From Escherichia coli 042 (GTDB lineage Bacteria > Pseudomonadota > Gammaproteobacteria > Enterobacterales > Enterobacteriaceae): a DNA stretch of 64,000 nt. The notes under the pieces are model-generated. The model worked only from the letters and a program-made list of their open reading frames with translations, was not told the DNA's origin and searched no databases. Position 1 is the stretch's first letter; each line of letters starts with the position of its first letter. The stretch lies in assembly GCF_000027125.1 (NCBI RefSeq), contig NC_017626.1; one strand, given 5' to 3'. Both the position numbers and the translations under genes were made by a program. This document shows positions 11,559-24,632 of the stretch, one piece after another.

Positions 11559-13216
11559 CCGATACTCCAGAAGAGCACCGCCAGTAATTGGGGGGTGATA
11601 ATGCGCAGGAACATCACTAACGGATAGACAGTGGCGTAAGAGAGCGCCGCCGCACCGCTCGTTGGATGAAGATTATTAGCAAACGCCAGCGCCGGAGGAT
11701 CGGTCATGGAGCCAGCCAGCATCCCGCACATGGTCAGGTAATTCATTTTGGCTAACATCCGCGCCAGAATGCCAACAGTAATCAGCGGAACGGCGGTGAT
11801 CAGCGCACCATAACCAATCCAGCTTAGCCCTTCGCCATTGACCAGGGTATTCACAAAATCCCCACCAGATTTCAGACCAACGACCGAGAGGAACAGCACG
11901 ATCCCCAGCTCCCGCAGCGCGAGGTTGGCACTTGGCGGCATAAACCAGTACAGCTTGCCGATACTGCCGATACGCCCGAGGATCAACGCCATAATCAGCG
12001 GACCGCCCGCCAGCCCCAGTTTCAATGCGGCCGGGAATCCCGGCACAAAGACGGGAATAGAACCTAACAATACGCCAAGCCCGATACCAATAAACACCGG
12101 CAACATCTGAACCTGTTGCAGTTTTTGCTGCGCATTCCCCAGCACATTGGCAACGGCATCAATTGCGGACGGACGCCCCACCAGGTTGAGAATATCGCCG
12201 AACTGCAGGCTGATATCGCCACTGGCAACCAGTTCGACCCCGGCACGGTTCAGGCGCGAGATAACAACGTCGTAGCGTTCTTTAAAGTGCAGGTCGCGAA
12301 TACGCTTACCAAGCACGTTTTCATTGGTGACCACCACACGCTCGACGCGTAAATCAGTGCCTTTCGTGGACAGCGAGGTATCGACCTCCTGACCAATCAC
12401 CAGTTGCGCATTATGTAAATCCGCTGGCTGCCCCACCAGATGCAGCAAATCGCCCAGTTGGATAATGGTATCTGGCGAAGGTACTTTTAGGGTTTCTTCT
12501 CGTTTCAGACGCGAGCAGATAATTTTGTCGCCGTTGAGAATCGGTACATCTTTAATGGCTAAATCATGCAGGTTAGGGTTCTCAACGCGAATATTGATAG
12601 TCCTGATCAGCGCGCCGCCATTGGTGCGTGAAGACTCGTGCTGCTGGGCTTCTGTCTCGACATTGACGCGGAAAATAACCCGCAACATCCACATGGTGAA
12701 CAAAATCCCGCAAATGCCGAATGGATACGCCATCGCGTAACTCATCCCCATCTGATCGACCATTTCCATTGGTGTACCCAGGTCGCGCAAGATCTGCTGC
12801 CCTGCCCCCAGTGCTGGCGTATTGGTTACCGCACCGGAGAAAATCCCCAGTACTACCGGCAGTGGAATATCAAACAGTTTATGCAGGATGGCGGTAACCA
12901 GACCACCGATGATGACGATCAGAACAGCAAACAGGTTGAGGCGTAATCCGGAGACGCGCAATGAGGCAAAGAAGCCCGGACCCACCTGAATCCCGATGGT
13001 ATAAACGAACAGGATCAGGCCAAATTCCTGAATAACATGCAGCATATCGCTACTTAATGTCATCCCCGCCTGAGAAACAAAATGGCCGACGATGATCCCA
13101 CCAAACAGCACGCCGCCAATACCTAATCCTATGCCGCGAAATTTGACGTTGCCGATAAACAAACCGACGACTGCCACCAAAGCCAGAATACTGACCGTTA
13201 ATGCTATATCACTCAT
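11555..13216 (-). CDS. yidE: Putative transporter YidE (AAE family)
   Basis: ORF 11555..13240; start placed at MSDIALT (13216), giving 553 aa; two-lobed membrane protein. Confidence 0.85.
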
Positions 13217-13365
13217 CGTCCATTTCTCTTGAGATAACATTTTAATTGCTACGGATTATGGCTGAATCGGTGAAGCAGATTTGCCTTATAGCGCACATTA
13301 TCACGGGAAAGAACGTGCCGAAATATCTTAAACAGGCGAAAATTAACGCATTGTTGAAGAAGAAA

Positions 13366-13400
13366 GACAAAAAAAGCCCCACCAGAATGGCGGGGCAAAG
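13366..13400 (-). terminator. Rho-independent terminator after ibpB
   Basis: Minus-strand hairpin gccccgcc...ggtggggc followed by a T7 run immediately downstream of the ibpB stop. Confidence 0.6.
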
Positions 13401-13411
13401 AGAATAGCTAG

Positions 13412-13840
13412 TTAGCTATTTAACGCGGGACGTTCGCTGATAGCGATACGCTGCGCTGCGATGGGTTCAGGCTCATTACGAATTAAATCAATATGCAGTA
13501 AACCGTTTACGAAGGTTGCACCAGAGACTTCCATATTTTCAGCCAGCGTAAAGCTCAGGCTAAATGGCTGATTCATAAGCCCTTGATGCAGCCATTTTTT
13601 CTCTTCTTTTGGCTGCTCCGGCGTGCCTTTTACGCTCAGGCGCGTACCTTCCAGTTGAATCTCTAAATCTTCCTGACGAAAACCTGCCAGCGCAAGGGTA
13701 ATGCGGTAGTGGTTATCGTCGCTTTTCTCAATGTTGTACGGCGGGAAGCTCTGGCTTTCACCGGCGTTTTGCAGTGCGTTGGCCAGTTTGTCAAAACCGA
13801 TCCATTGACGCATCAGTGGGGATAAATCGAAGTTACGCAT
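13412..13840 (-). CDS. ibpB: Small heat-shock protein IbpB
   Basis: ORF 13412..13879; start at [13 protein letters not shown] (13840), giving 142 aa; alpha-crystallin domain. Confidence 0.93.
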
Positions 13841-13951
13841 AGTCATTTCTCCTTCTAAGAAGCGAGTAAGTACCTGCAAATCCGAAGATTCGCATATGCT
13901 CCCTGACGGCGAGCATGGAGATGTCAGGCCGCGCCAGGCGGCCTTAAGGAA

Positions 13952-14365
13952 TTAGTTGATTTCGATACGGCGCGGTTTTTTCGCTTCCGGAATCACGCGT
14001 TCGAGATCGATATACAGCAGACCATTCACCAGGTTAGCACCACGAACATGAATGTTCTCAGCTAACTGGAATTTGCGTTCAAAGTTGCGTTCAGCGATGC
14101 CCTGGTACAGATAGGTGCGCTCTTTTTGTTCGTCGGCGTGAGCACCTTTCACCACCAGCAGATTATCCTGGGCGGTAATTTCCAGTTCGCTCTCAGCAAA
14201 ACCAGCCACAGCGATAGCAATGCGGTAATGGTTTTCGTCTACCAGTTCAACGTTATACGGAGGGTAGCCGCCATTACTCTGGCTCTGGTTGTTTTCTAAG
14301 TGGTTAAACAAACGGTCAAATCCAATAGCAGAACGGTAAAGCGGGGATAAATCAAAGTTACGCAT
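13952..14365 (-). CDS. ibpA: Small heat-shock protein IbpA
   Basis: ORF 13952..14371; start at [16 protein letters not shown] (14365), giving 137 aa. Confidence 0.93.
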
Positions 14366-14460
14366 AATCAATAGCTCCTGAAATCAGCGAGAATGTAAGA
14401 CCTTCCACAATGGACAGGTCAGGTAGCCAGAACACCCATCAGGCGCGTCCTCATCGGCTA
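14366..14460 (-). promoter_or_regulatory. ibpA 5' UTR (location of the described ROSE-like RNA thermometer)
   Basis: Leader between the sigma-32 promoter and the ibpA AGGAG Shine-Dalgarno; the thermometer assignment is from literature knowledge, and the fold was not computed. Confidence 0.45.
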
Positions 14461-14466
14461 CGATGT

Positions 14467-14496
14467 AAAAATGGGTCTGGAAATGAACTTTTCAAG
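14467..14496 (-). promoter_or_regulatory. Sigma-32 heat-shock promoter of ibpAB
   Basis: Minus strand reads cTTGAAAa, 15-nt spacer, CCCATTTTT, a good match to the sigma-32 consensus TTGAAA / CCCCATNT. Confidence 0.7.
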
Positions 14497-14670
14497 CCTT
14501 ATCAGCGGACTTTTTTTTGCAGTTTATGGTCTATTGCATAGACTGAGGGGGCAGCACGAAACGTTAAAGTGCGATAGCCGCCACAGTGCGACGTAATGAT
14601 GATGTTATTTTCAGCAAGGGATCGCTATAACTCATCAGGCCAACACCCACGATCAACAGATGAATTTATT

Positions 14671-15003
14671 ATGATAAGAAATGTGTTGTTAGCGTTCATG
14701 ATATGCAGCGGAATGACATTACTTGGAGGATGCTCCAGCGTGATGTCCCATACCGGGGGGAAAGAAGGAACGTATCCCGGCACCCGCGCCAGCGCCACCA
14801 TGATTGGCGACGATGAAACCAACTGGGGCACTAAGTCGCTGGCGATTCTCGATATGCCGTTTACCGCTGTGATGGACACGCTTTTACTGCCGTGGGACGT
14901 GTTCCGCAAAGACAGCTCGGTGCGCTCACGCGTTGAAAAAAGCGAAGCCAACGCGCAAGCCACCAATGCGGTTATTCCACCGGCCAGAATGCCTGATAAC
15001 TGA
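14671..15003 (+). CDS. yidQ: Lipoprotein YidQ
   Basis: ORF 14596..15003; start at MIRNVLLAFMICSGMTLLGGCSS (14671) with a lipobox (LGGC); 110 aa. Confidence 0.82.
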   Translation: MIRNVLLAFMICSGMTLLGGCSSVMSHTGGKEGTYPGTRASATMIGDDETNWGTKSLAILDMPFTAVMDTLLLPWDVFRKDSSVRSRVEKSEANAQATNAVIPPARMPDN

Positions 15004-24527: not shown

Positions 24528-24632
24528 TGCCGGATGCGGCGTTAACGTCTGATCCGGCCTACAAAATCATGCAAATTCAATATATTGCACGAGTCTCGTA
24601 GGCCTGATAAGCGTAGCGCATCAGGCACGCTC
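24528..24632. repeat. REP (repetitive extragenic palindromic) elements, two units
   Basis: gccggatgcggcgttaacgtctgatccggcctac and gtaggcctgataagcgtagcgcatcaggc match the enterobacterial REP consensus. Confidence 0.8.

Follow-up and report, generated by a model that had tools for sequence, protein, structure and literature searches.

Positions 14366-14500 of the 64-kb window (the window being the whole stretch of DNA that was analysed, 64,000 nucleotides in length) almost certainly constitute the native control region of ibpAB, in which a sigma-32 promoter, an RNA thermometer that hides the Shine-Dalgarno (SD) sequence, and feedback by the IbpA protein are combined. Within these positions, all of the named elements are carried by the minus strand, a detail that the earlier note on this DNA had left unstated. 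For its part, the present analysis contributes to this reading the sequence elements themselves, a family match, patterns of conservation and covariation, and energetics that are weak; the literature contributes heat-dependent translation, the effect of deleting a bulged G, binding of the RpoH holoenzyme, and binding of IbpA. We infer the exact transcription start, the role of an A-tract as an UP element, and the roles of two upstream hairpins designated SL1 and SL2. As a control element of ibpA, the region has been described and annotated and is thus already known, being the family's type example and having been annotated beforehand.

The regulated gene is ibpA, which is divergent from yidQ, and the interval of interest falls between the two. 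The genes at the locus are as follows:

Positions 13952..14365, minus strand: ibpA coding sequence, the regulated gene, an open reading frame of 137 aa plus stop with its ATG at 14365..14363 (RefSeq and K-12 annotation)
Positions 13840..13412, minus strand: ibpB (RefSeq annotation)
Positions 14671..15003, plus strand: yidQ (RefSeq annotation)

The ibpA product matches the Pfam HSP20 family (E 2.7e-24), and an HSP20/alpha-crystallin domain is present in the products of both ibpA and ibpB; the earlier note was therefore right to name ibpA as the downstream gene, a designation on which the domain, RefSeq, and the K-12 annotation agree. Across positions 14340-14680 the sequence is 100% identical to that of E. 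coli K-12 MG1655, and the leader is the type sequence of the E. coli ibpA ROSE-like thermometer, not a variant of it. Of 5426 complete E. coli genomes, 5419 contain this stretch, 5400 of them at an identity of at least 99%. RefSeq itself annotates at this locus a ROSE element, over the same interval as the Rfam match described below, together with ibpA, ibpB, and yidQ.

Upstream of ibpA, three sequence elements compose the putative promoter region:

Positions 14490..14496, minus strand: -35 element of sigma-32 type, CTTGAAA (sequence and conservation)
Positions 14467..14475, minus strand: -10 element of sigma-32 type, CCCATTTTT, located 14 nt 3' of TTGAAA at a conserved spacing
Positions 14511..14518, minus strand: A-tract TGCAAAAAAAAGT, UP-element-like, about 15 nt upstream of the -35 element and just beyond the flagged interval

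Promoters recognized by sigma-32 carry a CTTGAAA-like -35 element and a CCCCATNT-like -10 element about 13-15 nt apart. The ibpA promoter resembles the E. coli sigma-32 promoters (those of dnaK, groE, and others) in its CTTGAAA, its CCCAT-containing -10 element, a spacer within the range of 13-15 nt, and the presence of a heat-shock gene downstream, but it differs from the CCCCATNT consensus, which has four Cs, in that its -10 element CCCATTTTT has three. The spacer between TTGAAA and CCCATTTTT reads AGTTCATTTCCAGA and counts 14 nt, which corrects the 15 nt given in the earlier note. On its own, the promoter pattern is weak evidence: TTGAAA-N13-15-CCCAT occurs once in the 64-kb window against 0.19 occurrences expected, and at least one match arose in 18 of 100 shuffles. 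The pattern was nonetheless found in 73 species, with the 14-nt spacing the same in 72 of the 73; the -35 element is TTGAAA in 70 of these species and TTGATA in 3, and the -10 octamer encountered most often is ACCCATTT (43/73). In an alignment of 80 species (designated A1), the -35 columns are at least 90% conserved. The A-tract, when anchored on the -35 element, is kept in essentially all 80 species and may act as an UP element. With both elements present and their spacing so widely conserved, the assignment of a sigma-32 promoter in the earlier note stands. A scan of positions 13200-14800 for sigma-70 promoters returned no candidate. Genomic SELEX with the RpoH holoenzyme yielded a peak within the ibpA/yidQ spacer (PMC5493296), and ibpA mRNA is induced by heat as a member of the RpoH regulon (PMC9032294).

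Transcription from this promoter probably initiates a short distance downstream:

Positions 14458..14460, minus strand: putative transcription start, with G14458 the most likely nucleotide, as deduced from the published 'G71' numbering

This placement follows from the bulged G of the SD hairpin, G14388, which would be position 71 of a transcript with +1 at G14458 and which is called 'G71' in PMC2896394. G14458 is a purine approximately 9-10 nt 3' of the -10 element and is a plausible start. No mapped ibpA transcription start was found in the accessible literature, nor do the supplements of the start-site atlas of Kim et al. 2012 list ibpA. The leader would span about 93-95 nt, or 93 nt if +1 is G14458; the figure of about 100 nt in the earlier note was thus roughly right but somewhat too long.

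The leader that follows is predicted to fold into three hairpins, of which the third sequesters the SD sequence:

Positions 14359..14431, minus strand: extent of the Rfam ROSE_2 match, which takes in SL2 and SL3 and reaches 7 nt into the ibpA coding sequence
Positions 14424..14460, minus strand: SL1, a stable hairpin at the 5' terminus (MFE fold and compensatory changes)
Positions 14399..14420, minus strand: SL2, a stable hairpin with a bulged G (MFE fold and ROSE_2 consensus helix)
Positions 14369..14395, minus strand: SL3, the thermolabile SD-occluding hairpin (Rfam consensus, MFE fold, and RNAalifold)
Positions 14386..14390, minus strand: anti-SD UCGCU, the C variant of the ROSE motif U(U/C)GCU, with G14388 bulged
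Positions 14375..14379, minus strand: Shine-Dalgarno sequence AGGAG, 9 nt 5' of the AUG

This leader belongs to a known family. The match to Rfam ROSE_2 (RF01832) at 14431..14359 on the minus strand scores 100.4 bits (E 9.1e-23) against a gathering score of 65 bits, and it is full length, covering model positions 1-73 of 73 with no truncation. The ROSE_2 consensus consists of two helices, one corresponding to SL2 and the other, CUC-G-CUG/CAGGAG around an AUUU loop, to SL3, and the latter is invariant throughout that Rfam family. Several features that characterize ROSE elements are found here: placement in a small heat-shock gene's 5' UTR, an above-threshold family score, an anti-SD (UCGCU) imperfectly paired to the SD and containing a bulged G, and three hairpins, where such elements have two to four, with those on the 5' side stable and the SD hairpin weak. 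Together with the existing literature on this very leader, these features bear out the ROSE-like thermometer reading proposed in the earlier note, and the comparison with a characterised ibpA leader that it had called for gives identity to K-12 as well as the full-length ROSE_2 match. Membership in ROSE_3 was rejected on a score of 20.8 bits (E 0.69), which lies under the gathering score of 43; the likeness to that sub-family is therefore limited to the SD hairpin, and the leader lies outside it.

The thermometer of the E. coli ibpA gene as it is cited in PMC10410725 (ref. 26, Waldminghaus et al. 2009), a ROSE_2 element, occupies the same locus and does not differ from the element described here. 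With the ibpA thermometers of Pseudomonas (PMC3669281) and with rhizobial ROSE1 (Rfam ROSE and ROSE_3), the leader shares the U(U/C)GCU anti-SD, a bulged G, and placement of the SD in the 3'-proximal hairpin; also common to the Pseudomonas and rhizobial ROSE elements and that of E. coli are a small heat-shock protein gene downstream and one or more stable 5' hairpins that do not melt. The architectures differ in that the Pseudomonas leaders form two hairpins in a UTR of 61-62 nt, whereas the E. coli leader forms three in about 93 nt.

At the core of SL3, CUC-G-CUG pairs with CAGGAG across an AUUU loop (14391..14375), and beneath it lies a weak lower stem, CA/UG. The leader does end in AGGAG, as the earlier note had said, at 14379..14375. 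The same note anticipated a stem of the UUGCU type opposite the SD; the stem is of that type, but the motif itself is UCGCU. ROSE-like thermometers are defined by U(U/C)GCU (PMC3669281), of which the leader has the C variant. In Silvania, U takes the place of C14389, giving UUGCU. Bulging of G14388 is common to the Rfam consensus, the MFE of the isolated hairpin, and RNAalifold. Among 80 species, AGGAG is invariant but for Cedecea neteri (CAUGAG), and SL3 has six core pairs that are 99.8% paired and essentially invariant: four never vary, one shows variation on one side, and in the last only one cell is unpaired. SL3, being invariant, gives no covariation signal, and comparison therefore cannot tell pairing from conservation of the two sides for other reasons; such invariance is expected, since a fixed SD forces a fixed partner. 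Deletion of G14388 in silico is predicted to create a perfect 6-bp stem, lowering the energy at 30°C from -5.0 to -8.95 kcal/mol and reducing SD opening 4-5-fold at all temperatures. In a secondary account that cites the original experiments, deletion of G71 from the E. coli ibpA leader abolishes thermosensing (PMC2896394), and the modelled effect of removing G14388 is consistent with that phenotype.

The arrangement of all three hairpins was further evaluated by comparison across the Enterobacteriaceae, with alignment A1 comprising 80 ibpA loci from different species over 150 nt made up of upstream sequence and 15 nt of coding sequence. Under the three-hairpin model, standard pairs occupy 88.1% of cells; shifting the 3' partners by 1-3 columns brings this down to 34-52%. 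None of 500 shuffles reached the covariation score of the model. RNAalifold, run without the three-hairpin model, recovers the top of SL1 and the SD hairpin. In SL1, which consists of a lower stem, a 4-nt asymmetric internal loop, an upper stem with a bulged G, and a tetraloop, compensatory changes occur at 7 of the 9 upper-stem pairs, with pairing in 92.4% of cells. SL2, with the pairing GACCU-G-UCC(A) / (U)GGAAGGUC, is paired in 94.7% of cells, its outer pair being AU in 35 species, GC in 34, and GU in 11. The predicted structures of SL1 and SL2 are thus supported by compensatory changes, and both hairpins form part of the MFE throughout the range 20-50°C (ViennaRNA).

These data bear on whether the promoter-like hexamers and the foldable leader resemble regulatory elements by chance and have no regulatory function, a proposition whose probability is vanishingly small. 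In its favor can be counted the expectation of 0.19 promoter patterns per window, a whole-leader MFE that is not significant (z -1.06), and an SD occlusion that also is not significant alone, 10.7% of shuffles that preserve the dinucleotides of the upstream part being equal or better (11% when rounded). Chance would nevertheless have to produce the ROSE_2 match with its E-value of 9e-23, compensatory changes in both SL1 and SL2, and motif positions and spacing that hold across 80 species in which linkers and loops have drifted (0.38 for the linker, 1.00 for the SL3 core), all at the exact locus for which an experimental literature exists. Conservation and the family match already refute it.

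Folding of the single E. coli sequence is less informative. SL3 is the MFE structure of the isolated region and of the UTR plus AUG, with energies of -5.6, -4.6, and -3.8 kcal/mol at 30, 37, and 42°C, respectively. For the UTR plus AUG, the SD is predicted to be 99% paired at 30°C, and its unpaired fraction rises about 3-fold, from approximately 1% to approximately 3.5% at 42°C. Extending the construct by 9-15 nt of coding sequence brings in a competing fold of similar energy, which pairs the CGC of the anti-SD with the G of the AUG and the CG of codon 2; this alternative is preferred at or below 37°C, and predicted SD accessibility then falls with temperature. The probability of canonical SL3 in E. 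coli consequently ranges from 0.2 to 0.99 with the length of coding sequence included, and is 0.2-0.4 with 9-15 nt (ViennaRNA). The check at 30 and 42°C suggested in the earlier note thus comes out both ways, the UTR plus AUG opening with heat but the inclusion of 9-15 nt of coding sequence reversing the trend. When the 80 species are folded singly, canonical SL3 is the dominant predicted structure in most, with a median probability of 0.97, 0.81, 0.76, and 0.69 for 3, 15, 30, and 60 nt of coding sequence, and E. coli is in the minority showing the competing fold. In 76-91% of these species, the SD-unpaired fraction is predicted to increase between 30 and 42°C.

Folding of one sequence is not decisive and neither proves nor refutes a thermometer. 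The earlier note had proposed that failure to predict a stable SD-occluding structure would refute its reading; this is an unsound refutation, because SL3 is weak by design and its prediction shifts when coding sequence is included. Published simulations likewise found melting of the ibpA ribosome-binding site to be not significantly different from that of 100 ordinary mRNAs (PMC2896394), and sensing by ROSE elements relies on non-canonical, heat-labile pairs that nearest-neighbour models miss (PMC4166951). For weak and deliberately imperfect hairpins, folding one sequence at two temperatures is an invalid test.

Researchers have described the ibpA leader as a three-stem-loop RNA thermometer in which SL3 masks the SD (bioRxiv 10.1101/2020.04.20.050740), and the E. 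coli ibpA-bgaB fusion has been employed as a positive control for thermo-induction (PMC3669281). A second layer of control is exerted by the gene product. IbpA binds the 5' UTR of its own mRNA and is a repressor of its own translation (PMC10474464); repression extends to ibpA, ibpB, and rpoH and is relieved by aggregates (bioRxiv 10.1101/2020.04.20.050740, PMC10474464, PMC10410725), and it requires both SL1-3 and residue R93 of the protein (bioRxiv 10.1101/2020.04.20.050740, PMC10474464). The ibpA leader is the primary published target of this autoregulation (PMC10474464, PMC10410725), and the SL1-3 delineated here are those mutated in that work, for which the K-12 sequence, identical to the present one, was employed. 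This feedback complements the thermometer and is no replacement for it. The autorepression layer was absent from the earlier note.

The feedback raises the question of whether the leader is mainly a translational operator worked by IbpA, with aggregation as the main signal and the temperature response of SL3 a minor, leaky contribution; we consider this conceivable, though distinctly less probable than a thermometer with feedback. Repression by IbpA of a reporter with this 5' UTR has been observed in vivo as well as with the PURE system, and filter-binding assays show that the protein binds the UTR, an ability that the R93A mutant lacks (PMC10474464). Mutation of any one of SL1-3 relieves repression, and aggregation-prone proteins induce at 37°C with no heat applied (bioRxiv 10.1101/2020.04.20.050740). 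To these can be added the only ~3-fold change in predicted SD opening between 30 and 42°C, and levels of identity (98% in the SL2 inner stem and 100% in the SL3 core vs 76% at four-fold sites and 77% in SL1) that exceed structural need. The two mechanisms are, however, compatible, and the authors themselves see in IbpA a 'safety catch' for a leaky thermometer (bioRxiv 10.1101/2020.04.20.050740). An operator of this kind also sits poorly with the use of the E. coli ibpA-bgaB fusion as a thermo-induction control (PMC3669281), with the loss of thermosensing upon bulged-G deletion as related in PMC2896394, and with Pseudomonas leaders that give temperature-dependent 30S toeprints in vitro when no IbpA is present (PMC3669281).

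Another proposal, which we regard as improbable, holds that the hairpins mainly protect the mRNA, whether as a 5' stem-loop against RppH and RNase E or in processing of ibpAB, with pairing of the SD a by-product. SL1 does lie at the extreme 5' end of the transcript as placed here and is stable at all temperatures, a stabilising role of hairpin I in ROSE-like leaders has been discussed (PMC3669281), and RNase-mediated RNA degradation partly assists the IbpA feedback (PMC10410725). Protection leaves unexplained why an invariant UCGCU and a conserved bulged G are positioned exactly opposite the SD, why the leader gives a full-length match to a thermometer family, and why deletion of the G has the phenotype cited in PMC2896394; moreover, a stability role of SL1 and SL2 fits the thermometer model and is not an alternative to it.

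With the combined thermometer and feedback preferred, regulation at ibpA would very probably proceed as follows. Heat or protein-folding stress would cause sigma-32 to accumulate and to direct transcription from around G14458, probably with help from the A-tract. In the resulting leader, SL1 and SL2 would remain stable at all physiological temperatures, while SL3 would pair AGGAG with UCGCU in a helix weakened by the bulged G to about -5 kcal/mol. At low temperature, 30S binding would be poor and the SD occluded; warming would unzip SL3 gradually, with no switch to an alternative fold, allowing more translation. Free IbpA oligomers would bind the same leader to repress translation further, and aggregates would titrate IbpA and lift the repression.

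Parts of the leader have evolved at an uneven pace. For each class of site, the frequency of the majority base and the number of invariant sites among the 80 species are:

ibpA four-fold degenerate sites (neutral proxy): 0.76, invariant 0/10
SL1 paired columns: 0.77, invariant 4/26
SL2 inner 6 bp: 0.98, invariant 8/12
SL3 core: 1.00, invariant 11/13
Loops: 0.53-0.78, invariant 1/16
SL2-SL3 linker: 0.38, invariant 0/13

By these measures the alignment shows three evolutionary regimes in one leader, with structure only conserved in SL1, sequence conserved in SL2 and SL3, and linkers and loops free to vary. Identity in the SL1 paired columns is close to neutral, and it is therefore structure alone that is conserved there. 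The inner stem of SL2, CCUGUCC/GGAAGG, is on the other hand 98% identical across the 80 species, an invariance that goes beyond a simple scaffolding or stabilising role and is left unexplained by either. Given this sequence-level invariance, SL2 is a candidate for the element that IbpA recognizes, and it is tempting to speculate, although tentatively, that SL2, perhaps with the invariant SL3 core, is read in a sequence-specific manner by IbpA oligomers, by another factor, or through a tertiary contact. The papers on IbpA autoregulation leave the determinants of RNA binding undefined, and the candidate that SL2 provides has not been published; it is the only point here that goes beyond the literature consulted. 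If this reading of SL2 is true, the leader would be a composite RNA-protein sensor whose specificity determinant is as yet undefined. The regimes themselves suggest, in a testable way, which parts of the RNA may be read by IbpA or another partner. An alternative pairing between SL2 and SL3 (CCUG with CAGG) was also considered by eye and set aside as not compelling, the complementarity amounting to 4 bp only.

A sigma-54 promoter has been described upstream of the second gene, ibpB; the sequence 5' of ibpB offered only a weak 6/12 match to GG-N10-GC, located inside ibpA, and this candidate was rejected. Rfam matches to Hrs1 and anti-hemB at 13369-13440 fell below threshold and reflect the ibpB terminator hairpin. 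The spacer between ibpA and ibpB contains a further hairpin:

Positions 13849..13866, minus strand: second ROSE-like SD hairpin in the ibpA-ibpB spacer, CUC-G-CUUC / UUA / GAAGGAG, with bulged G13863

The fold of this spacer (13953..13838) gives a z of -2.67, and ibpB has been reported to possess its own RNA thermometer, which also is repressed by IbpA (bioRxiv 10.1101/2020.04.20.050740, PMC10410725). As folded, the hairpin at 13849..13866 is ROSE-like and probably controls ibpB.

The 3' end of the ibpB leader carries a second ROSE-like hairpin, which retains the UCGCU motif of the ibpA leader and has its bulged G at G13863:

13849-13866 (-), ROSE-like hairpin, CUC-G-CUUC / UUA / GAAGGAG

This hairpin is located in the ibpA-ibpB spacer (13841-13951). 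Folding predicts four hairpins in the 116-nt spacer (z -2.67), and a search of the spacer against Rfam returned no match at E<=1. Previous work describes ibpB as having its own thermometer, likewise subject to IbpA repression (bioRxiv 10.1101/2020.04.20.050740; PMC10410725). The RefSeq start of ibpB is the ATG at 13840. Another ATG (ATGACT, 13841-13846, -) lies in frame two codons 5' of this annotated start, and a TTG-started ORF in frame with ibpB reaches back to 13879 (-). ibpB is also said to possess a sigma-54 promoter; the sole GG-N10-GC (sigma-54-like) motif upstream of the gene, TGGTGAATGGTCTGCT, resides within the ibpA coding sequence at 14016-14031 (-) and has 6/12 consensus matches.

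Across the aligned ibpA loci of 80 Enterobacteriaceae species, the inner stem of SL2 (14399-14420, -), CCUGUCC/GGAAGG, shows 98% identity, whereas SL1 is free to covary and does so at the neutral rate. A purely structural role does not suffice to explain the sequence-level constraint on SL2. The core of the SD hairpin displays only two natural variants among these species. In Silvania confinis (locus L046:1066-1215), UUGCU replaces UCGCU with retention of a U-G pair, while in Cedecea neteri NBRC 105707 (locus L049:1066-1215) the SD reads CAUGAG as opposed to CAGGAG, which is a weaker SD and costs the hairpin one pair. The IbpA protein and UTR of this same Cedecea strain were employed in earlier work (PMC10474464).

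When 9-15 nt of coding sequence are included, ViennaRNA also predicts for E. coli ibpA a weak alternative in which the anti-SD CGC (14387-14389) pairs with 14361-14363 (-), that is, with the G of the AUG and the CG of codon 2. Such a pairing would hide the start codon rather than the SD; in most other species it does not predominate.

Two further elements lie upstream of the ibpA promoter, the first just beyond the interval flagged in the earlier note (14366-14500):

14511-14518 (-), A-tract TGCAAAAAAAAGT (A8), ~15 nt 5' of the -35
14529-14543, perfect palindrome GTCTAT-GCA-ATAGAC, in the ibpA/yidQ spacer

The A-tract is kept in essentially all 80 species and appears UP-element-like in sequence. 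Conservation of the palindrome is recognizable across Escherichia, Citrobacter, Salmonella, and Klebsiella; the element could be bound by a regulator or belong to the yidQ promoter.

Downstream of ibpB is a strong intrinsic terminator, and the window holds two further above-threshold Rfam matches:

13376-13396 (-), intrinsic terminator, GCCCCGCCATTCTGGTGGGGC followed by T7
24563-24605 (+), ES036/CssrF sRNA, 50.9 bits
30082-30162 (+), AsdA, antisense RNA of the dnaA mRNA, 101.9 bits

Sub-threshold Hrs1 and anti-hemB matches at 13369-13440 are accounted for by the ibpB terminator.
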